64,000 bases of DNA from an uncultured Bacilli bacterium (GTDB lineage Bacteria > Bacillota_I > Bacilli_A > RF39 > UBA660): the NCBI GenBank assembly GCA_963931545.1, contig OZ007025.1:137145-201144 (forward strand), read 5' to 3'. Made by a program: the position numbers and the translations under genes. The notes beneath the pieces are model-generated. The model was not told the DNA's origin. It searched no databases and saw only the letters and a list, made by a program, of their open reading frames with translations. Position 1 is the stretch's first letter. Each line of letters opens with the position of its first letter. Of this stretch, positions 753 to 53,397 are shown piece after piece.

Positions 753-1865
753 TTACACCTCTATTTCCTTTATTTGTCCATTATCTATATGGATAAGTTT
801 AGCCTTGGCTAGGAGTTTTTTATCAATACTATCTAAATCAGTTGTAGTTATTATTACTTGCATATCTTTATCAATATGTTTTAATAGATTGTTTTTCTTT
901 TTATTATCTAAATCACTAAAAACATCATCGAGTAAAATAATTGGACTTGTCTTTTTAAAATCTTTAAATATTTCTATTTCAGATAGTTTTAAGGCTATTA
1001 CAGCCATTTTTTGCTGGCCCTGAGAGCCAAATTCTCTTAAGTTATTGTATTCTAAGTTGAAAGTAAAATCATCTCTATGGGGACCATATAATGTAGATTT
1101 AAGTTTTATTTCTTTTTCTAAGTGATTATTATAAGCATCTTCTAGAGTTTTTCTTATAGTTTCTTTATCAAAATTTTCTAATTCTACTGATGGATTATAT
1201 TTGATATTAAATCCTTTTAAACCTGTTATTTCTTCATAAATTGGTGGACAAATTTTATTTAGTTTTTCCACAAATTTATTTCTCATTTGATAAATAAAGA
1301 TACTTTTATTCACTAGATAATCGGTTAAAATATGAAAATAATTTAAATCAATAGGCATGTTTTGATTTAATTCTTTTAGATATTCATTTCTGATTTTTAA
1401 AAGTTTATTAAAATCAGTTAAGGCACTATAATAATTGATAGATAATTGAGATAGTTCGAGATTAAAATATTTTCTTCTTTCTCCAGGCGAACCTTTAATT
1501 AAATCTAAATCTTCAGAAGAAAAAATTATGACATTCATTTTTTCTATGTAGTCTGTTTGTTTTGTAATGATTTTGTCATCAATTTTTATTTGTTTTTTGG
1601 TTTTAGTCAAAGCTATTTCTAGATTGTAGGGAATATCTTTAATTAATTTACCCTTTACTATTGCTTTTTCTTGACCTGATTTAATTAAATTATCTGAGGT
1701 AAATGTTCGATGAGAGGTAGTAAAACCTAATAGATATATACTTTCTAAAAGATTGGTTTTACCTTGACCATTTTCTCCATAAATAATATTAATTTTATCA
1801 TTTAGGTTTAGATTCAAAGATGTATAGTTTCTAAAATTTTGAACATTTAGCGTTTTTATTATCAT
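753..1865 (-). CDS. recF: DNA replication and repair protein RecF
   Basis: 370-aa ORF with an N-terminal Walker A motif ([14 protein letters not shown]) and a C-terminal SMC-like signature. It sits in the conserved position between dnaN and gyrB. Confidence 0.9.
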
Positions 1866-1999
1866 GTTTTACCTCACTACCTATTTTCGTGCTACTAAAT
1901 TTAAAATTATAGTATTCTACATACTCCTATACCTCATAATCATTATACCACAAAATGGGCTTAAAAACGTAAAAATAGACAAAATATAGTCTATTTTTA

Positions 2000-2461
2000 T
2001 TACAATTTTGCTTCATTTTTGCGACTTTTTAAAATTAAAAGTAATTTGGTAGCTCTAAGTATTTGATTTTCAAAAGATTCATATGATACTTGAACTTCTA
2101 TTTTTTGATTATTATCAAATAAAATTTGAACATTATTTCCAATTCTTTTATATTCATTAATATTATTTAAAGCAATCCATGTACAGTTGTTATTTTCATA
2201 AGATGCGGTTGGAAATAAAATTATTTCTCTTGTTTCTTCTATTATTATTGGTAATTTGTATTTACTTCCTAAAGAATATTTTGAACCACTTAATCTTCCT
2301 TTAAAAGAACTACCATAATAAGCACAACTATTTTCGATTATTTTTTGAATTGGTAACATTACAGAAATATTATCTCTTTTTTCAATTACTATTGTTGAAA
2401 AGTCATCTTTTGGTATAAGAGCGCATGTTGAAGCATTAATTTCGTATTCTTCTTTAATCAT
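2000..2461 (-). CDS. ComK-family competence transcription factor-like protein
   Basis: 153-aa ORF. By my recall of B. subtilis ComK, the motifs SCAYYGSSFKGRLSGS, KLPIIIEETREIILFPTAS and VSYESFENQILRATKLL align with ComK SCRFFGSSYAGRKAGT, KPPIMVDPSNQIFLFPTLS and ISYNSFENQVYRTAWL. Confidence 0.55.
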   Translation of the reverse strand: MIKEEYEINASTCALIPKDDFSTIVIEKRDNISVMLPIQKIIENSCAYYGSSFKGRLSGSKYSLGSKYKLPIIIEETREIILFPTASYENNNCTWIALNNINEYKRIGNNVQILFDNNQKIEVQVSYESFENQILRATKLLLILKSRKNEAKL

Positions 2462-2566
2462 AAATCCTCCTTTGTCTTTTTAAAGACAACTCTCTTATAC
2501 TCATTTATTTGGTCGAATTTTGTTTATTCTTGTCGATATAGGTAATTTTTTTAAAAAAAGAACTTT

Positions 2567-3688
2567 TTAATAAGTTCTTATTGGTAATATTAGCTGTATT
2601 AAATCATCCGATTCTATATTTTTTAAAATTATTGGTTTAATTTCTCCATTGAACATTAGTTCTATTTCTTCTGATTCTAAAGCTTTTATTGATTCCATCA
2701 TGAATTTTGAGTTAAAAGCTATTTTTATTTCACTATTATTATTTTTTTCCACAGTTATTTTTTCTTCTACATTTCCTATTTCTGGAATATTTGAAGATAT
2801 AATAGCTTCATTATTATTTGTTTCAAATTTTATTGTGTTTTTATCACTTTCGTTTGTTAATAGTGAAGCTCTATCAATAGCACTATATAAATCATCATAT
2901 TTTACTTTTAGCGTTAATTCATAGGTTTCTGGTATTAATTTTGAAGTATCAGGATACGTTCCACTAATTAATCTTGTCATCATATTTATTTGGCCAAATT
3001 TAAATACTACTTTATTAGCAAATATATGCATTTCTAGGTTTTCTTCATCATTATTTAATAGTTTTACTAATTCATTTAAATTTTTAGTTGGAATAATGAT
3101 ATTAGAGTTTTCCACAGCATTATTTTCTAGAGTTATTTTTTTTACAGCTAATCTATAAGAATCTGTTGCGGTACATTCTAAAGTATTTCCTTCTATTTTA
3201 AAGTTTATACCTGTTAATACTGGTCTTGTTTCACTAGTACTTGTAGCAAATGAAGTTTGACTTATAATTGTTTTAAATAGTTTTTGATTTAAGATAATAG
3301 GATTTTGATTAAATTCTAAGTCTAAATCTGGAAATTCATTTACATTACTACAATTTAGAGTAAATGATGAATTATTTGTTGTAATATATAATTTTGAATC
3401 AATTACTTCTTCAAGATTTATCATTTCATTTGGTAGTTTTCTAATTATTTCATGAATATATCTTCCTGAGACTACAATTTCTCCTAATGTATCTATTTTT
3501 TCGATATTTTTTTTATCTATAAATGTTTTTATTGATATTTCACTATCTGTACTCATTAAATATAAGCCTTCATCAGTTAATTCAAATTTTATACAATTTA
3601 AAATTGGTCTTAAGTTTTTTGTTGATATTCCTCTTATTACATAGTTTAAATGTTCTAAGAGAATGTCTTGTTTAATTTCTAATTTCAT
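2567..3688 (-). CDS. dnaN: DNA polymerase III beta sliding clamp
   Basis: 373-aa ORF immediately downstream of dnaA, with the typical beta-clamp length and three-domain pattern. Confidence 0.9.
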   Translation of the reverse strand: MKLEIKQDILLEHLNYVIRGISTKNLRPILNCIKFELTDEGLYLMSTDSEISIKTFIDKKNIEKIDTLGEIVVSGRYIHEIIRKLPNEMINLEEVIDSKLYITTNNSSFTLNCSNVNEFPDLDLEFNQNPIILNQKLFKTIISQTSFATSTSETRPVLTGINFKIEGNTLECTATDSYRLAVKKITLENNAVENSNIIIPTKNLNELVKLLNNDEENLEMHIFANKVVFKFGQINMMTRLISGTYPDTSKLIPETYELTLKVKYDDLYSAIDRASLLTNESDKNTIKFETNNNEAIISSNIPEIGNVEEKITVEKNNNSEIKIAFNSKFMMESIKALESEEIELMFNGEIKPIILKNIESDDLIQLILPIRTY

Positions 3689-3825
3689 AAATTATTCCTC
3701 CTTTATTATTAATTTAAATTATTTTTTATTATTGATGTGGATAAGTGTGGAAAAGTATAACTTTACACTGAAAAATATAGTTATTTTACATGTGGATAAA
3801 ATGTTTATAAGTTTATTATTTTTCA
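3689..3825. promoter_or_regulatory. oriC DnaA-box cluster in the dnaA-dnaN intergenic region
   Basis: The plus strand carries TGTGGATAA at 3736-3744 and 3791-3799 and TGTGGAAAA at 3746-3754. These are TTATCCACA-type DnaA boxes on the dnaA strand, set in AT-rich DNA. Confidence 0.7.
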
Positions 3826-5169
3826 CTATTTAATTTGATTGATTATTTTTGATATTTCTACTTCTAAATTTTTATCTTTTTTTAATTCTCTTTTTATCTT
3901 AGCAACTGAGTGCATTACTGTTGTATGGTCTTTTCCACCAAATTCACTTCCTATTTTTGGTAGAGATTCTTTTAAATGAATTCTACATATATACATGCCT
4001 ATTTGTCTTGGTACGGCTATTTTAGATAATCTTTTTTTAGATTTTATATCTTCAACTGTAATATTATAATTGTTTGCAACTAACTGTATTACTTGGTCTA
4101 TTTTATTTCTTGAGATAATGTTTTTTCCTATATAGTCTTTTAAGGCTTCTACGGCTAGTTCTAGTGTTATTTCAGAGCCATTCATTATAGTAGCATATGC
4201 GAAGACTCTAGTCAAAGCACCTTCTAGTTTTCTTATGTCGGTTGTGCAGTTATTGGCAATATATTCTTTAACTTCTTCTGGCACGAAGCTACCAATCCCT
4301 TGTGCCTCTATTTTTTTATCTAATATTGCCATTCTAAGTTTAAAGTCAGGTGGTAATATGTCGATGGTTAATCCCCAGTTAAATCTTGTTCTTAATCTAT
4401 CTTCTAATTTTTTTAAGTCATCTGGTGATCTATCAGATGATATGATTATTTGTTTATTTTGTGTGTGTAATTCATTAAATGTGTTGAAAAATTCTTGCTG
4501 AGTCTTACTTGCTATTTCCAAATATTGAATATCATCTATCATTAAGACATCTATATCTCTATATTTTCTTTTAAATTTATCTACAGCTTTGAAATTACTT
4601 GTTTCACTTTTTCTATATATGTTTAAAAAATCATCGACAAATTTTTCACTAGTTACATATAATACTTTTTTGTTTGATGTTGCCATGATATAATTTCCTA
4701 TTGCATGCATAAGGTGAGTTTTACCTAAACCGCTACTACCGTATATAAATAGTGGATTATACATTGCACCTGGTTTTTCAGCAACAGCCAAACCTATGGC
4801 TTTTGCAAATTTATTACTTTCACCAGATATAAAGTTATCAAAGGTGTATTTGCTATCAAGGCCACTTTCAAATATAGCTTCATTATTGTTTTCTACTTTA
4901 GTTTGGGGTTTATCTTCAGTTATTTCATCTGGTGTGACATATTTGAATTTAAAGATAGAACCAGTAACTTCCATAAATGTTTCTTTAATTATTTCTCCAT
5001 AGTTTTCTCTTAAATGTTTTTTATGGACATCTAGTGGTACTTCTACTATGGCATATTCATTATTTAGGTCAATTAGTTTTGTGTCTTGAAACCATGTTTG
5101 AAATAAAACTGGTTTTAATTTTATTTCAATTTTGGATAAAAAAACGGACCACATATTTTCTAAATCCAT
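3826..5169 (-). CDS. dnaA: Chromosomal replication initiator protein DnaA
   Basis: 447-aa ORF with the AAA+ Walker A motif GSSGLGKTHL and a C-terminal DNA-binding domain. It is flanked by DnaA boxes. Confidence 0.95.
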   Translation of the reverse strand: MDLENMWSVFLSKIEIKLKPVLFQTWFQDTKLIDLNNEYAIVEVPLDVHKKHLRENYGEIIKETFMEVTGSIFKFKYVTPDEITEDKPQTKVENNNEAIFESGLDSKYTFDNFISGESNKFAKAIGLAVAEKPGAMYNPLFIYGSSGLGKTHLMHAIGNYIMATSNKKVLYVTSEKFVDDFLNIYRKSETSNFKAVDKFKRKYRDIDVLMIDDIQYLEIASKTQQEFFNTFNELHTQNKQIIISSDRSPDDLKKLEDRLRTRFNWGLTIDILPPDFKLRMAILDKKIEAQGIGSFVPEEVKEYIANNCTTDIRKLEGALTRVFAYATIMNGSEITLELAVEALKDYIGKNIISRNKIDQVIQLVANNYNITVEDIKSKKRLSKIAVPRQIGMYICRIHLKESLPKIGSEFGGKDHTTVMHSVAKIKRELKKDKNLEVEISKIINQIK

Positions 5170-5530
5170 ACTACTACCCCCGTTATAAATAATCTATAAA
5201 CATTTTACAATAAATTTACATAATTTTCTATAAAAACTGTGGAAAAAAATCGAAAAAAGTTATTAACAGTCTATAAATGTCGAATTTTAGTACTTTATGT
5301 AACGTTTCCACATAAATTGTGGATAATTATTTTTGCACATTTGTGCATAATTTATTTTTTTACACAAATGTTGAAAAATAGAAAAATTGGTTTATAATAT
5401 ATGGAAATTTTATGTGGATATTTAAAGTGAATAATTTTAAAAAAAATTTACTGTGGAAAACTTGAACGTTGATTTTTTGCTTATTTTTTGATATAATTAT
5501 GGCAATTTTTTAACAAAAATTTTGTTATTA
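5170..5530. promoter_or_regulatory. oriC upstream DnaA-box cluster and AT-rich unwinding region
   Basis: DnaA-box matches: TGTGGAAAA at about 5238-5246, TTTCCACAT at about 5305-5313, TGTGGATAA at 5318-5326, TGTGGATAT at 5413-5421 and TGTGGAAAA at 5452-5460. Long A/T tracts lie between them. Confidence 0.7.
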
Positions 5531-5531
5531 A

Positions 5532-5560
5532 TTGACAAAGTTGTTTTTTATCTATATAAT
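5532..5560 (+). promoter_or_regulatory. Consensus sigma-A promoter of the rpmH-rnpA operon
   Basis: TTGACA at 5532-5537, a 17-nt spacer, then TATAAT at 5555-5560, about 40 nt upstream of the rpmH start codon. Confidence 0.7.
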
Positions 5561-5599
5561 TTATAAAGCGATGTGAATTGAATTTAGGAGGTGTAATAG

Positions 5600-5725
5600 A
5601 TGTCTAAAAGAACATTTCAACCAAACACTCGTAAGAGAAGTAAGAAAATGGGATTTTTTGCGCGTATGAAAGCTGGTATTGTAAGTAGAAGAAGAAAAAA
5701 AGGCCGCAAGGTATTATCTCATTAA
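5600..5725 (+). CDS. rpmH: 50S ribosomal protein L34
   Basis: 41-codon [44 protein letters not shown] with a GGAGG ribosome-binding site. It falls below the ORF-track length cutoff. Confidence 0.9.
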
Positions 5726-5728
5726 TTT

Positions 5729-5756
5729 GCCACTGCTGGCGAGCAGTGGCTTTATT
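5729..5756 (+). terminator. GC-rich stem-loop between rpmH and rnpA (partial terminator or processing site)
   Basis: GCCACTGCT-GGCG-AGCAGTGGC forms a 9-bp stem, followed by TTTATT. Confidence 0.5.
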
Positions 5757-5774
5757 AGTAGTTTAGGAGAGTTT

Positions 5775-6119
5775 ATGAAGAAAATTAATATTGTCAAGGA
5801 AAATCGTGATTATAATAGAATTATTGAAAAAAATAAACCTTTTAGGTATAAGGATTATATTATATATATAGATAAAAGGGAATCTTCTATTTATAAGTTT
5901 GGTTTTTCGGTAGGTAAAAAAATTGGAAATGCGGTTGTTCGTAATAAAGTTAAAAGACAAATTAAGGAAATTGTTTCACAAAATGACTATAAAAATGATT
6001 TTGATTGTATTATAATAGTTGGTAAAGGTATTTTAAATAGAAGTTTTAGTGAGATGAGTCAAGATTTGAATTTTGCTTTACGAAAACTTAATTTAGTAAA
6101 GGAGCGAAAAGATGCATAA
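5775..6119 (+). CDS. rnpA: Ribonuclease P protein component
   Basis: The protein starts MKKINIVKENRDYNRII and contains the GFSVGKKIGNAVVRNKVKRQIKE RNase P motif, immediately after rpmH. The ORF-track start at 5727 lies upstream of the GGAGAG ribosome-binding site. Confidence 0.85.
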   Translation: MKKINIVKENRDYNRIIEKNKPFRYKDYIIYIDKRESSIYKFGFSVGKKIGNAVVRNKVKRQIKEIVSQNDYKNDFDCIIIVGKGILNRSFSEMSQDLNFALRKLNLVKERKDA

Positions 6120-7125
6120 AAAAATTGGATTATTTTTATTGATAGGTGTTTTATCTTTATCTCTTACTGGATGTACTGAATATGTTAAGAATAAAGATGG
6201 TAATCCTGTGAAGGAAGCAACTACTGGACAAACACTTGCTTCAAATATACTTTGTAAGCCAACTAATAAAGATGTTATTAAAACTTATAAGAAAAACAAG
6301 GTAGATATTGAAGATTTGCCAAAATGTGAAAATTTTACTCCAGCTTCTGGAGAATATGGTGGAATTTGGGAAACTATTTTTATTAAACCTTTAAGTTGGT
6401 TTATTATTAAGGTTGGAGAAATTCTTAGTAATTATGGTTTAGCTATTATTGTTGTTACTTTGATTATTCGTTTAATTATTTTTCCTATTAGTAAAAAATC
6501 GGCTTTACAGTCTGAAAATATGAAGTTTGCTCAAAAGGATTTAGAGAGGTTAGAGCGTAAATACCGTGGACGTGAAAGTCAAGAAGACCAAATGATGAAA
6601 GCTCAAGAGATGATGGGAATTTATAAAAAATATGATATTAATCCAATGTCGGGTTGTTTATTTGCTTTTATTCAAATGCCATTATTCTTTGCTTTCTTAG
6701 AGAGTTTGAATAGACTTCCTATTGTCTTTGAAGGTAAATTTTTAGGATTTAATTTAGGAATGAGTCCATTTGTTAAGTTATTTGGTGGAAATTTTGATTT
6801 TTCAGTATTTATGGATAGTTTTACTAATGGTGGATGGATTTATTTATTACTTCCAATATTAGTTGCTTTAACAACATTCTTTTCATTTAGATTAAATTCT
6901 GGTGTTAGTAGTGGTAATGAAGAACAGATGCATCAGATGAAGGTTATTATGAATGTAATGCTTGTATTTATTGTAATTACTTCATTTACAATGCCAACAA
7001 GTATTATTATATATTGGATAACTGGTAGTTTATTTACTATTATTCAAGCTGAAGTGATTAGGAGGATGAAGGAAAATGTTAAAGGTGGTACAAAAAGAAT
7101 CAAAAAACAAAGAAGAAGCGCTTAA
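6112..7125 (+). CDS. yidC: Membrane protein insertase YidC/OxaA family (lipoprotein type)
   Basis: An N-terminal lipobox (LSLTGC) precedes a multi-TM 60-kDa insertase core. Its position after rnpA is conserved. Confidence 0.9.
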   Translation: MHKKIGLFLLIGVLSLSLTGCTEYVKNKDGNPVKEATTGQTLASNILCKPTNKDVIKTYKKNKVDIEDLPKCENFTPASGEYGGIWETIFIKPLSWFIIKVGEILSNYGLAIIVVTLIIRLIIFPISKKSALQSENMKFAQKDLERLERKYRGRESQEDQMMKAQEMMGIYKKYDINPMSGCLFAFIQMPLFFAFLESLNRLPIVFEGKFLGFNLGMSPFVKLFGGNFDFSVFMDSFTNGGWIYLLLPILVALTTFFSFRLNSGVSSGNEEQMHQMKVIMNVMLVFIVITSFTMPTSIIIYWITGSLFTIIQAEVIRRMKENVKGGTKRIKKQRRSA

Positions 7126-46479: not shown

Positions 46480-47277
46480 ATGAATGAATATGAACCAAAT
46501 CCAAAATTACAGAATTTAGTTAATCAACCTAAAAAAAACAATAATAAGATACTTTTTATTTTAATTGGAGTTATTGTTTTACTTATATTTATTATTTTTA
46601 TAATGTCACTTGGTGGTAAGAAGGTTATTGAAAGAGAAGTAGAAAAGAAGCAGAGTTTAGATGAGATATCTACAGAAATTAGATATTTTATTGACATTAA
46701 TAAGTTAGATGCTTTGGATGCTTTTGGATATGATAATTTAGCTAGAGTGGCAATTAATGAAATATGTTATGGGGTTGACAACTGTAAATCTATTCAAGGA
46801 AGTGCGGTAAGGGAATATATTAGTAATATATTTGATACTGAAGTAACTTTTTCGAATATTAACTGCGAGCTTGGCGATGGTGTTATTTACACTTATGATA
46901 GTAAAAACGATAAATTTGTTTTTACTGGGGAACATGCTCATGGTGGGATAGGTACTAAACCTATTTACACTAAGGTTAATAGTATTAAAAGAAAAGGTGA
47001 TAAGATAGAACTTATTTTAAATAAACTGTATTATAATCCTGAAAGGACTGATTATATTACAACTGACCCATTTGGTGTTAATAGGGTTTATAACTCTAAA
47101 GATTATATGCATACCGTTGAAGGTGGTGAAGATGTTGATTTAACAAAATTATCAGCTAATTATGAAAATAATTTTGATGAATTAAAAAATGTTGGAACAA
47201 GATATAAATATTTATTTGTTAAAAAAGATGGTCATTATGTTTTAGAAAAATATGAGATAATTACTGAGGAAGAGTAG
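46480..47277 (+). CDS. Hypothetical membrane-anchored protein
   Basis: One N-terminal TM and no family signal. Confidence 0.5.
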   Translation: MNEYEPNPKLQNLVNQPKKNNNKILFILIGVIVLLIFIIFIMSLGGKKVIEREVEKKQSLDEISTEIRYFIDINKLDALDAFGYDNLARVAINEICYGVDNCKSIQGSAVREYISNIFDTEVTFSNINCELGDGVIYTYDSKNDKFVFTGEHAHGGIGTKPIYTKVNSIKRKGDKIELILNKLYYNPERTDYITTDPFGVNRVYNSKDYMHTVEGGEDVDLTKLSANYENNFDELKNVGTRYKYLFVKKDGHYVLEKYEIITEEE

Positions 47278-47455
47278 GCTTTTAGGGTTTACTTTTTTTG
47301 TTATGAGGGGTGATTTTTTTAACAATATATATTGAAAATGTCGTTAATTTTTGTTATCATTATTATGGCACAATATGGTATCAAAAAAGTTGCTTACTTA
47401 AGTGTGGTTTATTCATACCTTTGTGTTTGCAATTAAAAGTGGAGAGGAGGATTTT

Positions 47456-48010
47456 ATGGAAAAGAAAATTAGTTATTCAGGAGTTATTATTACGGTACTT
47501 GCTGTGGCTATATTAGTTATGTCAGTGGGGTTTGCGGTATTTAGTGCAAATATTAATTTTAATGGTACAGCTAATGTTTCTAGTACTAGGTGGAATGTAT
47601 TTTTAGATGAAAGTACTTATCAAAAAACAGAAGGTAGTGTAGAATCTGTTAGTGAGCCTACTATTAATACTAATTCAATGACTTATAGTGTTAATTTAAC
47701 TAAACCTGGTGATTTTTATGAATTTACTATTCATGTAAAAAACACTGGTTCATTTAATGCAAAATTGAAAAGCCTTACTATGACTGATATTTCTGAACAT
47801 TCTAATTACTTGAAATATACAATTACCTATGCTGGTACACCTTATACTAGCTCTAATTCTAGTTTATCTATTCCACTTAATGCTGGAACTGGTGATGAGG
47901 AAGTTAAAGTAAGAGTTGAATATGTTCAACCTTTACAGGCTACTGATTTACCTAGTGAACTTAAGGCTATTACTTTAAATGCAGCTTTTGATTATGAACA
48001 AGTAGCTTAA
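47456..48010 (+). CDS. TasA/camelysin-like protein with a SipW-cognate-type signal peptide
   Basis: GGAGAGGAGG ribosome-binding site. The signal-peptide end VMSVGFAVFSANINFNGTA resembles the G-T-[FW]-A-x-F-[ST]-D class. NLTKPGDFYEFTIHVKNTGSFNAKLK resembles the TasA NLKPGDKLTKDFQFENNGSLAIK block. Confidence 0.6.
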   Translation: MEKKISYSGVIITVLAVAILVMSVGFAVFSANINFNGTANVSSTRWNVFLDESTYQKTEGSVESVSEPTINTNSMTYSVNLTKPGDFYEFTIHVKNTGSFNAKLKSLTMTDISEHSNYLKYTITYAGTPYTSSNSSLSIPLNAGTGDEEVKVRVEYVQPLQATDLPSELKAITLNAAFDYEQVA

Positions 48011-48021
48011 GTATAGTGTTT

Positions 48022-48051
48022 TAGCTATTCTATTTTTAAATAGAATAGCTA
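48022..48051 (+). promoter_or_regulatory. Perfect 14-bp inverted repeat between the TasA-like and SipW-like genes
   Basis: TAGCTATTCTATTT-TT-AAATAGAATAGCTA with no T-run after it. It could be an attenuator or RNA-stability hairpin, or an operator. Confidence 0.5.
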
Positions 48052-48066
48052 AAGCTCATTATTCAT

Positions 48067-49194
48067 ATGGAAAAATATAAAAATTTATATATTACAGAAG
48101 TTTTAATACTTTTGATTTATATAGTTTTGAAACTTTTGTGTATGAATCAGCCTTTCTTTTTACAGTATTTTGATGCTATATATTTTTGTTTAATTTTTAT
48201 TTATTTTTATTTTAAATATGGAATAGCTAGAGATAAAAATTATTATACAAAAATAAGTGTTAGATATATAATTATATTTTTACTTTTATATGTCTTAATC
48301 ATTTATGGTTTGGGCCTTTTTATGGGGTTTACTAAAACTATATATGATAATAGTTTGGCTTTAATTTTAAAAAATGCATTACCAATTACTATTTTAGTTA
48401 TTTTTAGAGAATTAACGAGATTTATAGTTGCTTATAATAGTAAAAAAAATATGAAACCTATTATATTATTGACTATTATTTATATATTATTTGACTGTTT
48501 TAGTGGATTTGTTAGTTCTTCTTTTAATTCATTTTATAATATATTTCAGCTTGTTTGTTTAACTATATTACCTTCTATATCTAAACATATGCTTTTAAGT
48601 TATTTAACTTATAAGATTAACTGTTTTCCTTCTTTGGTATATAGTTTACCTATGGAAGTTTTAATATATGTATTACCTTTTTTCCCTAATTTAGGTGATT
48701 ATTTAACGGCTGTTATATCATTATTTTTACCTTTTTGTATATATTTGTTTATTAAAAAATTACTTAGTTATGATGAAAAGGAAGTTTTGAAGATTCATGG
48801 CTTATTTATTAAGATATTTATGATAATTACTATAACATTTTTAATTATAATAATTATACTTGTATCTGGAATTTTTAAATATAAAATGATTGCAATTGCT
48901 TCTGATTCAATGAACCCTATTTATTATAGAGGAGATGCTATTATATATGAAAAGGTTAGTTTAGATGAACTTCAGAAAAATGATATTTTAGTTTTTGAAT
49001 ATAATAATTCTGTTGTTACTCATAGGATTATTAATATTATAGAAGAAAATGGTCAAAAATATTTTCAAACTAAAGGGGATAACAACTCTAAAGCTGATTT
49101 GAATTTGGTATCTATGAACGATGTTTTAGGTAAGGTTAAATATATTGTTAAATATATTGGTTTTCCTACAGTATGGTTTAATGAAACGTTTTAA
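48067..49194 (+). CDS. SipW-type (S26B, Ser/His) signal peptidase I fused to a roughly 250-aa N-terminal polytopic membrane domain
   Basis: The C-terminal 100 aa carry SDSMNP (catalytic Ser box), VTHRIINI (His box) and TKGDNN (Asp box), typical of archaeal/eukaryotic-type SipW. Residues 1-275 form about 7 hydrophobic helices. The alternative start at ATG 48820 (MIITITFL...) would give a canonical single-TM SipW of about 124 aa, but no ribosome-binding site is evident there. Confidence 0.65.
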   Translation: MEKYKNLYITEVLILLIYIVLKLLCMNQPFFLQYFDAIYFCLIFIYFYFKYGIARDKNYYTKISVRYIIIFLLLYVLIIYGLGLFMGFTKTIYDNSLALILKNALPITILVIFRELTRFIVAYNSKKNMKPIILLTIIYILFDCFSGFVSSSFNSFYNIFQLVCLTILPSISKHMLLSYLTYKINCFPSLVYSLPMEVLIYVLPFFPNLGDYLTAVISLFLPFCIYLFIKKLLSYDEKEVLKIHGLFIKIFMIITITFLIIIIILVSGIFKYKMIAIASDSMNPIYYRGDAIIYEKVSLDELQKNDILVFEYNNSVVTHRIINIIEENGQKYFQTKGDNNSKADLNLVSMNDVLGKVKYIVKYIGFPTVWFNETF

Positions 49195-49209: not shown

Positions 49210-50268
49210 ATGAAAAAAAGAAAAATTGACAAACTTATAATAGTGGCTATTATATCTGCTTTGTGTTCTTTTTTAGCTTTAAACTTAGCTAGACTTGGTT
49301 TTCGTAATTATAATGAGAGGATAATTAATTATAATGAAGATTCAAAAATTAATTATCAAGTTCATTTGAAGTCTAATGATTTTTTTCAAAATGAATTTTT
49401 GCCAGAAAATATGTCTTACGTTACTAGTTTAATTGATTATATAAAATTGAATTTTGATTATAATTTGAATTTCGATAAGGAGTTAAGTGGAACATATTCT
49501 TATTATATAAAAGCTACTATGGACGCTAATAAGGAAAATAGTGATAGTAAGTTTTATACTAAAGATTATATTTTAAGTGATGTTAAAACCGAAAAATTTG
49601 ATGATAAGAAAAAAATTAATATAAAAGAAAGTATCGATGTTGATTATGATACTTATAATGATGTTTTAATTGCTTTTAGGGACGAATATGGCGTTCAAAT
49701 GGATGGTAATTTGGATGTTAGTTTGGTTGTTGAAAGTACTTTTAATGATAAAGTTAGTGGGGAAGATGCTGGCAAGAAAAGTGAAACTAGTCTTAATATT
49801 CCTTTAACTACTTTAACTGTTGAAGTTCCTATTGAAAAGGATAATAAGGTAAATAGTGGGATTTTACTTTCGACTAAAATTACTAAAGAAGGGTTTATTT
49901 ATAATGTATTTAGAGTTTTAGCTATTATTTGTTATATAGCGGCCTTTACTTTTCTTTTATATTTTATTTATTTAACTTATTTGAGTTTTAAATTAGAAAA
50001 CGCTTATGTTAAAAAATTAAAGAAAATATTAAAGGTATATGATGGTATTATTGTAAATGTTAAGAAAAAACCTAGTATGGATAATAATAAAGTTGTTTGG
50101 GTTTCTAGTTTTGAAGAATTGATAGATGCTCACGGAGAGGTTAGAAATCCAATTAATTATATTCAAGAAAAAGATGGTGCTTTGTTTTTATTAGTTAGTG
50201 AGAGTTATATTTATGCTTATAAATTAAGAAGAGAACTTTTTGTGCGTGAGGAGAAAATCAATGTTTAA
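49210..50268 (+). CDS. DUF5305-like bitopic membrane protein (SipW-locus associated)
   Basis: N-terminal TM, a roughly 200-aa extracytoplasmic segment, a second TM (VLAIICYIAAFTFLLYFIYL) and a roughly 100-aa cytoplasmic tail. From memory, proteins with this architecture co-occur with SipW and camelysin genes. Confidence 0.4.
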   Translation: MKKRKIDKLIIVAIISALCSFLALNLARLGFRNYNERIINYNEDSKINYQVHLKSNDFFQNEFLPENMSYVTSLIDYIKLNFDYNLNFDKELSGTYSYYIKATMDANKENSDSKFYTKDYILSDVKTEKFDDKKKINIKESIDVDYDTYNDVLIAFRDEYGVQMDGNLDVSLVVESTFNDKVSGEDAGKKSETSLNIPLTTLTVEVPIEKDNKVNSGILLSTKITKEGFIYNVFRVLAIICYIAAFTFLLYFIYLTYLSFKLENAYVKKLKKILKVYDGIIVNVKKKPSMDNNKVVWVSSFEELIDAHGEVRNPINYIQEKDGALFLLVSESYIYAYKLRRELFVREEKINV

Positions 50269-52624
50269 GTTTTTTAAAAAAAATATAATTCTCATGCTTT
50301 TTTGTTTTGCTTTTTGTTTAATGAGTGTTGGGTATGCTTTATATGGTGAGACAGTTAATTTAAATGGAAATATTACTTTGCAAAAAGTAGGTAGAATTGA
50401 AATTACTAGTGCTTCTATTGTGAGTGGTGAGTGCAGTAATATTAGTAATTATGGTAATCCTACTTATAATGGATTACATATTGATTTTAAATTTAACACG
50501 AGAAGTAAGAATTTTACGGCTACTTATTTGGTTACGGTTACAAATAATTCTAATGTTCCTTATACTTATACTGGTACTTTAATAAATTCTAATATTATTA
50601 TTAGTGGTAGTACATATACACCGATGCTTAGCTCTACTTTGACTTATGCAGATAGTGGCGCTTTATTTGAAAATGGTGAATCTATTGATGTTGGTGAGTC
50701 TGTTAATTTAAAGATAAAAATGGATTTTGAAATCGAGCAAAATCCTAGTACTATGAATGTTAGTGGTGGTGTTGATTTTTCTGTTTCACAGGATAATACT
50801 GGTAGTTTAATTCCTTCTATTACCCCTTTAACTGGTAATTTAAGAGGTGATGGAACAATAGCACCTTTTACTTTAAAAGTTATTAATACTTTTAAGTATA
50901 ATAGAAGTTTTAGTTTGTCTTCTAGTAACGAAAATATCATTATAGTTGATAGTAATGGAAGTAGTTTAAATAATTTTACTATTCCTGCTAATTCTACGAA
51001 TGAATATACTATATATTTAATGGTTAAAAAAGGTAGTATATTTTTAACTGATAAAACTGATACAAATATTATATTATCTTCTAGGATGATTGATGATATA
51101 AATGTTGGTAAAATTGATTTGGATGTTGACAAGGATATTAATGCAACTGATTATGAAAAACCTGAAATTGGTAATGTTAATATTAAAATAAGTGAAAGTA
51201 ATCCGGTTGATGGTGAGGCTATTATTTCTTGGACACGTTTGGATAGTGGTGGATCATCAATTATTAATTATTATATTGAACTTGTTAATGTTGATAGTGG
51301 TGAGGTTAAAAAATATGAAACAGGTTCTTCTATAACTAGTTATACGGCTACTGGACTTAGTGCTGGTAATTATTATGCTAGAGTTTATGGTGAAGATGAG
51401 GCTGGAAATATTGGCTCTGATGACTGCTCAGTCGGAAATAGTTATTGTCCTAGTTCTGATGAAGTTTATTTGAGATGGGTATTTAATGTAACTAATGAAA
51501 TTGATAGATATTTAAGGTTTGATGGTGAGCCAACTGCTAATATATATACTAGTTATGAGATGAATCTTAGTGTACAAACTGGTTGGAGACTTCCTGATAC
51601 GGTGGAAATAACTATGGGTGGTGTTACTTTAGTTAGTGGAACTGATTATACGTATGATGCAAGTACTGGCCGAATTGTGATTAACAAGGTTACTGGTGAT
51701 ATATTTTTGAAAGCACATAGCCAAAATGGTTGTTTGGTGGAAGGAACTAAAATTAAATTAGCTGATGGTAGTTATAAAAATATTGAGGATATCGATTATG
51801 ATGATTTACTAATGGTATATAATCATGAAAACGGTGGTATTACTTATGAATATCCAATTTGGATTGAAAAGGTTAAAAAAGCTGATTCTTATGAGAAAAT
51901 TACTTTTAGTGATGGTTCTTATTTAAATACATGGGGACCTCATAGTTTGTTTAGTTATGATAAGATGGATTATGTTAATGTATTAATTCCTGATGATTTC
52001 CATGTAGGAACTAAGATTGTTAAAATTGTTAATGGTAAGATAAAAATAGTAGGTGTTGTTAAAATTGAAACTATTAATGATGAGATAAATTATTATCATG
52101 TTTCTTCTACTAGATATCATAATGTGATTGCTAACGATGTACTTACTACGGATGGTACTGGTGTGACAATGTATTTATATAATTTTAATGATGATTTAAC
52201 TTGGGGTAATGCTAGAGATGAATTTTTAGCTAAAAATGATTTATTTACTTATGAATATTTAAAACCTATTTTTCCTAAATATTTGTATTATGGTTATAGA
52301 ATGGCTGAGGGTAAAAATCCTTATAATCAAGGTAAGTTATTTATTGATAATATTGCTTATTTATTAAATAAAAATAATACTAAAGAAATTTTTAAGGATA
52401 AAGATAATAATAATTTATGGATGGTTACAACTAGTGATGATTTGGTTAATCCTTTTAATAAGAAAAAATATTTAAGAAAAGAAGATAGTTATTATACTTT
52501 ACCTATACCTAAAAATAAAAATAAATTTATTGGTTGGTTAAATACTGGTGATAATAAGATTTATAAACCTTTTGATAAGGTTAAAGTTTTACATGGTATG
52601 CATTTTGTTGCTAAATACGAATAG
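50261..52624 (+). CDS. Secreted 787-aa multidomain protein: SipW-cognate-type signal, TasA-like beta domains, FN3 domain, Hint (intein-like) autoprocessing domain, unknown C-terminal module
   Basis: GAGGAG ribosome-binding site. The signal MFKFFKKNIILMLFCFAFCLMSVGYALYGETVNLNG is paralogous to that of ORF 47456. FN3-like WTRLDSGGSSIINYYIELVNVDSGE...TATGLSAGNYYARVYGEDEAGN lies at about nt 51160-51445. Hint block A CLVEGTKIKLADGSYKNIEDIDYDDLL starts at nt 51731. A TWGPH block B and a YHNVIANDVLT block F-like motif follow. The C-terminal roughly 140 aa are uncharacterised. Confidence 0.7.
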   Translation: MFKFFKKNIILMLFCFAFCLMSVGYALYGETVNLNGNITLQKVGRIEITSASIVSGECSNISNYGNPTYNGLHIDFKFNTRSKNFTATYLVTVTNNSNVPYTYTGTLINSNIIISGSTYTPMLSSTLTYADSGALFENGESIDVGESVNLKIKMDFEIEQNPSTMNVSGGVDFSVSQDNTGSLIPSITPLTGNLRGDGTIAPFTLKVINTFKYNRSFSLSSSNENIIIVDSNGSSLNNFTIPANSTNEYTIYLMVKKGSIFLTDKTDTNIILSSRMIDDINVGKIDLDVDKDINATDYEKPEIGNVNIKISESNPVDGEAIISWTRLDSGGSSIINYYIELVNVDSGEVKKYETGSSITSYTATGLSAGNYYARVYGEDEAGNIGSDDCSVGNSYCPSSDEVYLRWVFNVTNEIDRYLRFDGEPTANIYTSYEMNLSVQTGWRLPDTVEITMGGVTLVSGTDYTYDASTGRIVINKVTGDIFLKAHSQNGCLVEGTKIKLADGSYKNIEDIDYDDLLMVYNHENGGITYEYPIWIEKVKKADSYEKITFSDGSYLNTWGPHSLFSYDKMDYVNVLIPDDFHVGTKIVKIVNGKIKIVGVVKIETINDEINYYHVSSTRYHNVIANDVLTTDGTGVTMYLYNFNDDLTWGNARDEFLAKNDLFTYEYLKPIFPKYLYYGYRMAEGKNPYNQGKLFIDNIAYLLNKNNTKEIFKDKDNNNLWMVTTSDDLVNPFNKKKYLRKEDSYYTLPIPKNKNKFIGWLNTGDNKIYKPFDKVKVLHGMHFVAKYE

Positions 52625-52743
52625 TGTTAGTTATTTACTAGCGCTATTTTATTTTTAAATCATTAATTATTTTAAAAATGTCGCTGCTCTATTATAATTT
52701 AATTTTATTATAATTATTATAGATTTATATTAGTGGTGAAACT

Positions 52744-53397
52744 ATGAAAAATAAGTATAATATGACTAAAGAAGATAATATATTTTTTGCTAAAAGAAAG
52801 TTAGTAGATAATATATATAAAAGTGCTAATTTAGAAGGAATTGCTGTTGCTTTTGCTGATATATATGCTTTTATGAATAATGTTAACACAGGTAATATTT
52901 CTGTGGATGATATGCTTAAACTTAAGGGACTTAAAGATGCTTGGGAATATGTTTTGAATAGTGTAGATGAAGAATTAACGATAGATTATATTAAAAAAAT
53001 TCATTTTGAAATTTGTAAAGGTCAAAATATTTATCCTTTAGGTGATTTTAGAAAGTGTGGTGTAGGTATTACTGGTACATCTTGGAGGCCTAAACTTCCC
53101 AGTGAATGTGATTATGAGGCTGAATTAAATGAGTTATTTAATATTTCTTCTGAAATAGATAGATGCATTAGTATATTTTGCTGGATACAAAGAAGTCAGA
53201 TGTTTTTAGATGGTAATAAAAGAGTAGCTAATTTGGTTGCTAATAAAGAGATGATTAAAAATGGTCAGGGTGTTATTGCTATTTCTGTAGAGAAAATTGG
53301 CGATTATATGGTTAGGTTAATTAAATATTATGAAACTAATGATATGTCAGAAATTAAAAAATGGATATATGATAATTGTATTGATGGTATTAATTAA
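52744..53397 (+). CDS. Fic/Doc-family protein with a degenerate active-site motif (SQMFLDGNKRVA)
   Basis: Motif FCWIQRSQMFLDGNKRVANLVAN aligns to Doc HIFNDANKRTA and Fic HPFxDGNGR. It has the Doc-type NKR, but the motif His is replaced by Gln. Confidence 0.55.
   Translation: MKNKYNMTKEDNIFFAKRKLVDNIYKSANLEGIAVAFADIYAFMNNVNTGNISVDDMLKLKGLKDAWEYVLNSVDEELTIDYIKKIHFEICKGQNIYPLGDFRKCGVGITGTSWRPKLPSECDYEAELNELFNISSEIDRCISIFCWIQRSQMFLDGNKRVANLVANKEMIKNGQGVIAISVEKIGDYMVRLIKYYETNDMSEIKKWIYDNCIDGIN

Follow-up and report, generated by a model that had tools for sequence, protein, structure and literature searches.

A conserved, Hedgehog-style Hint cassette most likely ends a putative accessory subunit of a bacterial fibre operon

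In the window analysed here, a 64,000-nucleotide stretch of contig OZ007025.1 from an uncultured gut Bacilli bacterium, the open reading frame 50261-52624 (+) encodes a protein in which an earlier sequence-only reading had noticed an internal Hint domain followed by a 140-aa C-terminal module. The question raised by this locus is what a Hint domain does at such a position, either releasing a toxin, as was then proposed, or processing a fibre-associated protein, as was offered as the alternative. The ORF and its 787-aa product have been confirmed; the start codon ATG at 50261 is preceded by a GAGGAG ribosome-binding site, with an 8-nt overlap with the stop codon of the upstream gene. The product is an exported multidomain protein, and its gene is the last one of a conserved four-gene operon coding for a small acidic subunit, a SipW-type peptidase, a DUF5305 protein and the Hint protein (Table 1).

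Table 1. Features of the operon and of the 787-aa protein, with positions in the window.
Feature	Coordinates	Strand	Evidence
Promoter-like site, TTGAAA-17-TATCAT with TG, upstream of the operon	47332..47360	+	Consensus scan only; such sites are not enriched over shuffles in this AT-rich DNA (weak)
Small secreted acidic subunit, 184 aa; signal ends ...MSVGFA; mature ~157 aa, pI 4.7	47456..48010	+	Family of ~185-aa proteins
Hairpin, 17-bp stem, directly 3' of the small-subunit gene; possible partial terminator or attenuator	48018..48055	+	Terminator-like scan
Polytopic SipW/archaeal-type signal peptidase I, 375 aa	48067..49194	+	TIGR02228 E 2.6e-25; SipW model E 2.6e-19; Peptidase_S26
DUF5305 membrane protein (TafG-like), proposed accessory of the dedicated signal peptidase	49210..50268	+	PF17231 E 6e-18; literature (PMC11821415, PMC12337348, bioRxiv 10.64898/2026.01.04.697558)
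Signal peptide of the 787-aa protein, residues 1-26, ending ...MSVGYA	50261..50338	+	Signal and first mature residues common to the small subunit, BLASTP E 4e-5
N-terminal pilin-like domain (residues 27-165) with homology to the small subunit	50339..50755	+	Profile comparisons
Second beta-rich domain, residues 166-298	50756..51154	+	Conserved block in homologue alignment; no Pfam match
Fibronectin type III domain, residues ~299-398	51155..51454	+	Titin FN3 matches E 0.018; PF00041 precomputed on many homologues
Pre-Hint beta domain, residues 399-490, ending in conserved strand xVTGDIxIxA	51455..51730	+	Also accompanies the Hint cassette in other carriers
Hint domain, residues 491-634; nucleophile Cys491, block-B His561, near-invariant Glu536, end ...LTTD631|G632	51731..52162	+	Profile, fold, residue counts
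Helical bundle, residues 635-715; always follows this Hint type; position analogous to Hedgehog SRR/ARR	52163..52405	+	
Beta-grasp domain, residues 716-787, InlB B-repeat / Listeria-Bacteroides repeat-like (Flg_new)	52406..52621	+	
Terminator-like hairpin and T-run over the stop codon; likely operon end	52619..52649	+	Terminator-like scan

The Hint domain is genuine and non-splicing, as judged from the modelled fold and the profile evidence, which are decisive. The lone sequence gave only sub-threshold matches against Pfam (Hom_end_hint, E 0.031; Intein_splicing, E 0.081), which alone are no proof. A 23-sequence profile of residues 476-787 matched the BIL2 Hint domain of Tetrahymena BUBL1 (6y75/6tmm) over the whole domain with an E value of 3e-8, and Hom_end_hint and the Hedgehog Hint model were matched by 20/23 and 15/23 of the profile members, respectively. 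An AlphaFold model comprising the Hint domain, the helical bundle and the B-repeat was obtained with a pLDDT of 90.7 and a pTM of 0.88, and its Foldseek comparison with solved Hint structures gave target TM-scores of 0.77-0.85 and E values of about 5e-10 to 1e-7. The structures matched were BIL2 (E 4.6e-10), Hedgehog 1at0 (E 1.2e-8, TMt 0.77), the Ssp DnaB and Mtu RecA mini-inteins and the C. thermocellum BIL 2lwy. The large secreted protein with an internal Hint domain described by the sequence-only reading is borne out; with regard to the BIL/PT-HINT type named there, the best match was BIL2 (6y75), and the PT-HINT model was not matched at E<=1 by any of the 23 members.

Catalytic residues were counted in about 255-260 cassette-bearing relatives. 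The beginning of the domain at Cys491, as read earlier, agrees with the presence of this residue (Cys1) in 255/255 relatives; His561 (His71, block B) was found in 260/260, Asn131 in 250/256 and Glu536 in 217/258. Block B had been given as TxxH, and its His is correct, but the motif is really T-x-x-x-H, with the Thr shifted by one residue and present in 173/261 relatives only, which leaves the His as the sole conserved residue of the block. The block F/G stretch HNVIANDVLTTD, also recognised beforehand as block-F-like, aligns residue for residue with HNFVANDIIVHN of Ssp DnaB, so that the penultimate His corresponds to Thr630, the terminal Asn to Asp631 and the +1 residue to Gly632. Throughout the family, the penultimate position is occupied by T (183 sequences) or S (36) and the terminal one by D (180) or N (17). 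The earlier statement that a terminal HN plus nucleophile is missing was therefore right, and because the His-Asn pair and the +1 nucleophile of inteins are replaced by Thr-Asp and Gly, the Hint domain of the 787-aa protein is unable to splice. Atypical inteins ending in Asp reportedly support C-terminal cleavage, and by analogy Asp631 could in principle do the same.

The C-terminal 140-aa module has a confidently predicted fold (pLDDT 90.1) and aligns end to end in more than 100 homologues, down to 31% identity. The module noticed earlier is real. For its helical part neither a recognised family nor a structural match of the bundle was found, and its last part is InlB B-repeat-like. The pTM of 0.88 suggests that the Hint domain, the helical bundle and the B-repeat form one packed unit. 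The shorter homologue matches look like contig-end fragments.

The cassette formed by the Hint domain and the helical bundle, with or without the B-repeat, is found on very different carriers, 425-2470 aa long, and always at their extreme C-terminus; at E<1e-30 there are 811 cluster representatives. These carriers include type IV pilin-like proteins (five with N_methyl above threshold), camelysin/TasA-operon proteins, Flg_new surface proteins and phage or giant-virus proteins, and the helical module is kept even in the most distant ones. Their N-terminal parts vary while the cassette stays constant. Similarity of two carriers, P0112 and P0113, to the 787-aa protein runs from residue ~446 onward, within the pre-Hint domain, in whose terminal strand the V and G are nearly invariant in the homologue alignment. 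P0113 combines a camelysin-type signal with the same cassette, and its gene is located directly 3' of a Peptidase_M73 (TasA/camelysin) gene and a short SipW gene. Other carriers are lipoprotein-like or without recognisable signal, and for this reason the cassette is not specific to fibres.

The N-terminal part of the 787-aa protein relates it to the first gene of the operon. In the hhalign comparison, residues 1-163 matched the small-subunit profile with a probability of 98.8%, an E value of 9e-17 and 155 aligned columns, and the small-subunit HMM finds the 787-aa protein at E 2e-7 (hmmsearch). The signal, with its aromatic P2' residue, is common to the two proteins; SipW-type cleavage of the 787-aa protein is predicted after ...VGYA, which would leave Tyr at P2'. 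A published study describes an aromatic residue at P2' as a TasA/SipW hallmark (PMC10269814).

The SipW-DUF5305-Hint adjacency was kept in 43 of the 54 loci with enough upstream sequence, and in 37 of them the small gene was detected upstream of the peptidase. Genes of the operon overlap, hairpins bracket it and the genes flanking it differ from locus to locus. Hydropathy analysis of the signal peptidase predicts about 7-9 TM segments ahead of the SDSM catalytic motif; a dedicated SPase I with ~10 TM segments is typical of AbpX loci (bioRxiv 10.64898/2026.01.04.697558). Tafi and AbpX loci have been described as recognisable by DUF5305 together with a dedicated multi-TM SPase I, and they also encode minor subunits and tip or anchor proteins (PMC11821415, PMC12337348, bioRxiv 10.64898/2026.01.04.697558). 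The four-gene set is the signature of an AbpX/Tafi/TasA-type donor-strand fibre locus, the type to which the operon probably belongs. The small subunit, which has 367 homologues in a tight family of proteins of ~185 aa, is a putative major fibre subunit, AbpX/TasA-superfamily-like. The best matches of its profile in the PDB, AbpX 9sj2 (E 0.074) and 9rhp (E 0.19), are both non-significant, and among 26 family members DUF11 was matched by 11 and Peptidase_M73 by one. Its mature pI and the aromatic residue at mature position 2 agree with described AbpX features, and its link to AbpX/TasA rests on gene context. By the homology of its N-terminal domain, the 787-aa protein would be a large accessory subunit of the fibre operon, of the tip, nucleator or anchor type.

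The explanation that we consider probable is a large accessory subunit of an AbpX/Tafi/TasA-type donor-strand fibre operon with a C-terminal Hog-like autoprocessing cassette. The 787-aa protein would be exported by Sec, the dedicated peptidase would remove the signal peptide at the predicted site, and the N-terminal pilin-like domain would join the fibre built from the small subunit, presumably by donor-strand co-assembly. The C-terminal 297 residues, namely the Hint domain, the helical bundle and the B-repeat beta-grasp domain, would act as the autoprocessing cassette, in which Cys491 would attack the Gly490 carbonyl (N-to-S acyl shift, His561-assisted) to give a thioester. Resolution of this thioester would set the ~50-kDa fibre-bound part (residues 27-490) apart from the ~35-kDa cassette, and cleavage at Gly490|Cys491 is the most likely activity of the latter. 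Hydrolytic maturation, with removal of the C-terminal region as a pro-domain, would be the default outcome, and transfer to a specific nucleophile the main alternative, so that in fibre biology the cassette may serve as pro-domain, anchor or warhead. The cassette is most likely a conserved, Hedgehog-style self-processing module that ends the fibre protein, and a published description of such a module was found in no paper. Covalent or autoproteolytic processing of a fibre-associated protein, the second option of the sequence-only reading, fits the evidence best, with the processing itself being a prediction.

The main alternative, a Hedgehog-like directed transfer, is a distinctly less likely reading although one to be taken seriously. 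The thioester at residue 490 would then be resolved by a specific nucleophile bound to the helical bundle and/or the B-repeat; an amine or hydroxyl of the cell envelope, a lipid, or a glycan of host or substrate are examples. To this nucleophile the fibre-bound fragment would become covalently coupled by its C-terminus, providing sortase-independent anchoring or covalent adhesion. A Hint domain with an obligatory extra module at the extreme C-terminus and variable cargo ahead is the Hog layout (PMC2362128, PMC7765530), and the retention of the helical module in distant carriers, the suggested single packed unit and the occurrence of the cassette at the distal ends of type IV pilin-like and Flg_new surface proteins point in the same direction. 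SLH or LPXTG anchor proteins have the equivalent role in other bacterial AbpX loci (bioRxiv 10.64898/2026.01.04.697558) and are absent from the locus under study. Glu536 aligns with the cholesterol-activating Asp46 (D303) of Hedgehog, but with low confidence (hhalign E 0.04). Directed transfer is also weakened by the lack of an identified ligand or nucleophile and of a structural match for the helical bundle, by the BIL activities known from a review, which are autocleavage at the N- or C-terminus, and by the lipoprotein-like carriers, for which a second anchor would be needless.

A catalytically silent Hint domain, acting as a structural or spacer element in a protein that stays intact on the cell surface, would account for the poorly conserved block-B Thr and for the loss of the penultimate His and the terminal Asn. 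It is nevertheless improbable in view of the absolute conservation of Cys1 and His71 in divergent sequences. In mean pairwise identity the Hint domain (53%) ranks ahead of the B-repeat (44%), the helical part (34%) and the N-terminal domain (30%), which makes it the best-conserved part of the protein and speaks for a working enzyme. Moreover, it is hard to see why, for structure alone, an exported protein should keep a free Cys invariant at exactly position 1 of the fold.

The polymorphic-toxin precursor of the sequence-only reading, in which the Hint domain would release the C-terminal 140 aa as a toxin or novel effector, is very unlikely and has been rejected. A Hint domain close to the C-terminus of a secreted multidomain protein had prompted it, and the unrecognised helical part and the Fic/DOC-like gene that follows in the window would suit it. 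The comparison of homologues proposed by the same reading gave the opposite of polymorphic-toxin logic, the N-terminal part being variable and the cassette constant: every full-length homologue shows the C-terminal module in co-linear arrangement, it is never swapped, and its conservation equals or exceeds that of the N-terminus. By this invariance the toxin interpretation fails the refuting test that the same reading had set. No toxin family was found in the module in Pfam or NCBIfam, its last domain being an InlB B-repeat-like beta-grasp, and the PT-HINT model was unmatched, as indicated above. After a cut at Cys491 the module would still carry the Hint domain, and the His-Asn needed for C-terminal release is absent. 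No conserved immunity-like gene was found 3' of the Hint gene across the loci compared; a Fic gene is located there only in the window and its two closest loci (L005 and L014), with SpoVG in L003, an opposite-strand ORF in L001 and unrelated genes elsewhere. A true mobile intein splicing residues 1-490 to 632-787 is effectively refuted despite the strong block A and F/G resemblance to mini-inteins, as the splicing residues are absent (Asn to Asp, penultimate His to Thr, +1 Gly without nucleophile), no Hint-less allele or homologue joining the flanks was seen among >250 relatives (115 + 150), a homing-endonuclease insert is lacking and the Hint domain is vertically conserved together with its flanks.

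Like the PT-HINT systems (such as MafB or Rhs/CdiA-type precursors), the 787-aa protein is large and secreted and has its Hint domain ahead of a C-terminal module, but here this module is constant and lacks a toxin fold, an immunity gene and a PT-HINT model match. BIL domains, especially those of B-type, provide the nearest solved structures, BIL2 (6y75) and 2lwy, and the best profile and fold matches to this non-splicing Hint domain of a bacterial secreted protein; as a review describes for B-type BILs, intein-like blocks A, B and F are present and the proper C-terminal motif is absent. According to the same review, BILs are found in hypervariable regions of non-conserved proteins with variable flanks, whereas in the present family it is the domain and its C-terminal flank that are conserved, as a fixed terminal cassette. 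The locus shares with AbpX/Tafi/TasA loci a dedicated many-TM SipW/archaeal-type signal peptidase, a DUF5305 partner, a small acidic subunit with aromatic P2' and a larger protein with the N-terminal domain of the subunit, as in predicted tip, minor or anchor proteins. It differs from them in the SLH or LPXTG anchors that the described bacterial loci use and in its Hint domain, which has been reported in no described locus (the word Hint has 0 occurrences in the text of the AbpX preprint, bioRxiv 10.64898/2026.01.04.697558). Compared with the eukaryotic Hog domain, the cassette is bacterial or viral, its post-Hint module is a ~80-aa helical bundle without detectable SRR similarity, usually followed by the B-repeat beta-grasp domain, and the second Hedgehog cysteine (C143) is absent from the 787-aa protein, in which Cys491 is the sole Cys within residues 397-787; the likeness concerns layout, fold and residues and does not extend to evidence for a sterol or other adduct. 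Within these terms, both are C-terminal cassettes of a Hint fold (1at0, E 1.2e-8) and an obligatory extra module, placed at the very C-terminal end of secreted proteins whose N-terminal cargo is interchangeable, and both are non-splicing, with invariant Cys1 and block-B His and, by the low-confidence alignment, a conserved acidic residue at about position 46.

The 787-aa Hint protein is encoded from an ATG at 50261 that follows GAGGAG and overlaps by 8 nt with the stop codon of the gene before it. Single-sequence searches of the whole protein in Pfam, NCBIfam and PDB gave sub-threshold Hint matches (Pfam Hom_end_hint, E 0.031; Intein_splicing, E 0.081) and a hint of FN3, nothing more, and for this reason profiles were needed. 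The profile A2, built from 23 homologues over residues 476-787, matched the BIL2 Hint domain of Tetrahymena BUBL1 (6y75/6tmm) with an E value of 3e-8 and full coverage of the domain. Hom_end_hint was matched by 20 of the 23 A2 members and the Hedgehog Hint model by 15. The AlphaFold model of the cassette, which comprises the Hint domain, a helical bundle and a B-repeat-like beta-grasp (pLDDT 90.7, pTM 0.88), matched the folds of BIL2 (E 4.6e-10), Hedgehog (1at0, E 1.2e-8), the Ssp DnaB and Mtu RecA mini-inteins and a C. thermocellum BIL, with target TM-scores of 0.77-0.85. The Hint domain proposed in the sequence-only reading was therefore confirmed by profile, member and fold matches; its description as near-textbook needed more support than the single sequence offered, and these results provided it.

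Among the relatives with the same Hint type (about 255-260 compared), Cys491 was conserved in 255/255 and His561 in 260/260. Block B, previously read as TxxH, has the real spacing T-x-x-x-H and its Thr occurs in just 173 of 261 sequences, so that only the His of that reading is invariant. The Hint end HNVIANDVLTTD, followed by G, pairs residue for residue with that of Ssp DnaB, HNFVANDIIVHN followed by S. The penultimate His of inteins is replaced here by Thr630, the terminal Asn by Asp631 and the +1 residue by Gly632, which excludes splicing, and a true intein was rejected. The conserved residues support a predicted N-terminal acyl shift with cleavage. Past position 58, Cys491 is the sole Cys besides the pair at residues 389-396 (CSVGNSYC; family consensus Cxx..NGYCS), which is conserved between the FN3 and pre-Hint domains and probably forms a disulfide loop in the exported protein.

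Features of the window in the origin region and in and around the putative fibre operon
Feature	Position	Strand	Remarks
Replication origin region	753-7125		chromosomal
recF	753-1865	-	
dnaN	2567-3688	-	
DnaA-box clusters	3736-3799 and 5238-5460		
dnaA	3826-5169	-	
yidC	6112-7125	+	
265-aa protein	46480-47277		directly 5' of the operon, on its strand
Small secreted acidic protein	47456-48010		184 aa
Hairpin	48018-48055		17-bp stem, between small-subunit and signal-peptidase genes
Signal peptidase I, SipW/archaeal type	48067-49194		375 aa; TIGR02228, E 2.6e-25
DUF5305 protein	49210-50268		E 6e-18
Hint protein	50261-52624		
Cysteine pair	51425-51448		
Fic/DOC-family gene	52744-53397		directly downstream of the operon

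The Hint gene is the final gene of the operon, after those of the small protein, the signal peptidase and the DUF5305 protein, and a terminator-like hairpin overlaps its stop codon. The signal peptidase has about 7-9 hydrophobic segments ahead of its SDSM catalytic motif. The hairpin behind the small-subunit gene could, by analogy with other pilus operons, raise the ratio of subunit to accessory protein. Of 54 related loci whose upstream sequence was long enough, 43 kept the peptidase-DUF5305-Hint order and 37 showed the small gene, and the remaining loci mostly had the same genes close by in another arrangement; the genes flanking the operon differed between loci. DUF5305 is TafG, which has been proposed to partner TafD, the dedicated signal peptidase of haloarchaeal Tat-fimbriae (PMC11821415, PMC12337348). 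A 2026 preprint on AbpX describes a locus type in archaea and Bacillota with an AbpX subunit, a dedicated signal peptidase I of about 10 TM segments, a DUF5305 accessory protein, minor subunits and tip proteins, and in bacteria also SLH or LPXTG anchor proteins for which donor-strand co-assembly is predicted.

When the small-subunit profile was compared with PDB, AbpX ranked first, non-significantly (E 0.074 and 0.19), and TasA was not matched; the homologue profile search yielded 367 proteins, none of them named, and connected the small subunit to no named family. The mature pI of 4.7 and the aromatic residue at mature position 2 are in line with the described AbpX features. The entire small subunit has its homologue in residues 1-163 of the Hint protein (hhalign probability 98.8%, E 9e-17), and common to both is a signal ending in MSVG(F/Y)A with an aromatic P2', which according to PMC10269814 is the property making TasA SipW-dependent. 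From the operon gene set, this homology and the common signal we conclude that the Hint protein is probably the large accessory subunit of an AbpX/Tafi/TasA-type fibre.

The operon adjoins the S10 ribosomal-protein operon. The origin genes, the DnaA boxes and a sign change of the GC skew near 5 kb place it on the leading strand, about 45 kb away from oriC. The 265-aa protein encoded just ahead of it has one N-terminal TM segment, no assigned family and a weak FliL-like match (E 0.003). At the locus of the relative P0091 (L001:3664-10023), two DUF5305-type and two small-subunit-like genes lie 5' of the Hint protein as a duplicated module, with a large DUF11/CLIPPER-repeat protein also on the upstream side. 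All relatives derive from MAGs of uncultured gut or rumen bacteria, with the labels Bacilli, Tenericutes, Mollicutes or Erysipelotrichaceae; the closest is 72% identical. Two loci have MurB and sporulation genes near the operon, which points to a cell wall in at least some of the hosts.

The region behind the Hint domain had been read as the possible effector of a polymorphic-toxin precursor. Most of the 115 homologues found were 780-800 aa long, with 100% query coverage down to 31% identity, and their alignment was co-linear through the final residue. Mean pairwise identity was 30% in the N-terminal domain, 35% in domain 2, 40% in FN3, 43% in the pre-Hint domain, 53% in Hint, 34% in the helical part and 44% in the last domain. 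Modelled separately (pLDDT 90.1), residues 635-787 form five short helices followed by a beta-grasp, and no match to the helical bundle was found. No toxin family was detected in Pfam or NCBIfam searches, PT-HINT was absent among the models matched by the 23 A2 members, and the genes 3' of the Hint gene varied from locus to locus. The toxin reading was rejected because the C-terminal module is co-linear in homologues, without a toxin family or a constant downstream gene; an invariant, unswapped module is what that reading itself had named as evidence against it. The case warns against automatically taking a Hint domain plus a C-terminal domain for a toxin. The downstream Fic/DOC-family gene has a degenerate, Doc-like motif (QMFLDGNKR), with Gln at the expected catalytic-His site as read from the translation. 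Its identity to the copies at the two closest loci is 92-93%, whereas the Hint protein is only about 71-72% identical there, and at more distant loci it does not follow the operon. A role as immunity or partner gene was rejected, since the gene lies downstream only in the window and these two loci.

An exhaustive cassette profile search returned 6104 cluster representatives at E<1e-3, with 811 left at E<1e-30. The 811 make up a large family in which the Hint domain and its constant helical partner serve as the terminal cassette of surface and filament proteins; among the carriers are type IV pilin-like proteins and the accessory subunit of AbpX/TasA-type fibre loci, a locus type recognised only recently. 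In the best 150 matches the cassette always reached the protein C-terminus, on carriers of 425 to 2470 aa. Many carriers end after the helical part (profile position about 232-238) and thus have no B-repeat. A SipW-type xG(Y/F)A signal was present in 63 carriers, and others had camelysin-type AYFTD signals, lipoprotein-like N-termini or no recognisable signal; five were type IV pilin-like, with N_methyl over the Pfam threshold. One carrier with a camelysin signal (P0113) is encoded directly 3' of a Peptidase_M73 (TasA/camelysin) gene and a short SipW gene, a second, independent tie of the cassette to TasA-type operons. DUF285/Flg_new surface proteins were also among the carriers, and the N-termini of some others resemble phage tail fibres. 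A Gaeavirus protein in BFVD was matched across the Hint and helical parts (E 1.4e-16, 263 columns), and several Caudovirales 'Hint domain' proteins have FN3 or collagen repeats. The cassette is a mobile module of filament and surface proteins. A distant carrier of 1152 aa (P0115, contig L085:1-14917), with the Hint and helical parts only and no signal peptide, is surrounded by giant unannotated proteins of 1210-1551 aa, with Peptidase_S8 and Laminin_G_3 genes near; this stretch may belong to a phage or encode some other large apparatus, either contractile or of the cell surface.

The mechanism proposed starts from the observed fold, invariant Cys1 and His, loss of splicing residues, cassette architecture and operon. 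Once the protein has been exported by Sec and has lost its signal, its N-terminal domain would be incorporated into the fibre, Cys491 would form a thioester at Gly490, and breakage of this bond would part a fibre-bound fragment of about 50 kDa (pI 4.4) from the cassette of about 35 kDa. Cys491-dependent N-terminal cleavage is a reasonably probable function, with hydrolysis as the default resolution of the thioester; the known BIL activities are N- or C-terminal autocleavage (review), and there is no candidate ligand for transfer. Directed transfer of the thioester to another nucleophile is a minority possibility, favoured by the obligatory helical module at the Hedgehog SRR/ARR position, by the high pTM of the three-part unit and by Glu536 (217/258), which pairs weakly (E 0.04) with the cholesterol-activating Asp46 of Hedgehog. 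It is rather unlikely that the cassette acts as a bacterial and viral Hog counterpart, a single-turnover ligase in which the Cys491 thioester serves to couple surface, pilus or fibre proteins covalently, at their C-termini, to one particular nucleophile other than water that the helical bundle and B-repeat select, with one chemistry common to TasA-type fibres, type IV pilin-like and phage fibre-like proteins. The target of such a ligase might lie in the cell wall or membrane, which would give anchoring independent of sortase, or be a glycan of the host or substrate, which would give covalent adhesion.

Hint autoprocessing is well understood for inteins and Hedgehog, and what is known of its roles in bacterial secreted proteins comes mostly from polymorphic toxins and a few BIL domains. 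In the open-access literature no paper was found tying Hint domains to TasA/AbpX/Tafi fibres or pilins, nor one combining a Hint domain with pilin, TasA or autoprocessing in this way. The single elements are already known; both the fixed terminal cassette of Hint and helical parts and its association with filament subunits appear undescribed. Simple self-removal of the cassette would represent a new fibre maturation step in abundant uncultured gut and rumen Bacilli; transfer, if true, would make the cassette a prokaryotic counterpart to Hedgehog lipidation and a means of forming covalent surface links without sortase. The constant C-terminal cassette with variable cargo follows the same logic as the Hog proteins, unlike that of polymorphic toxins.
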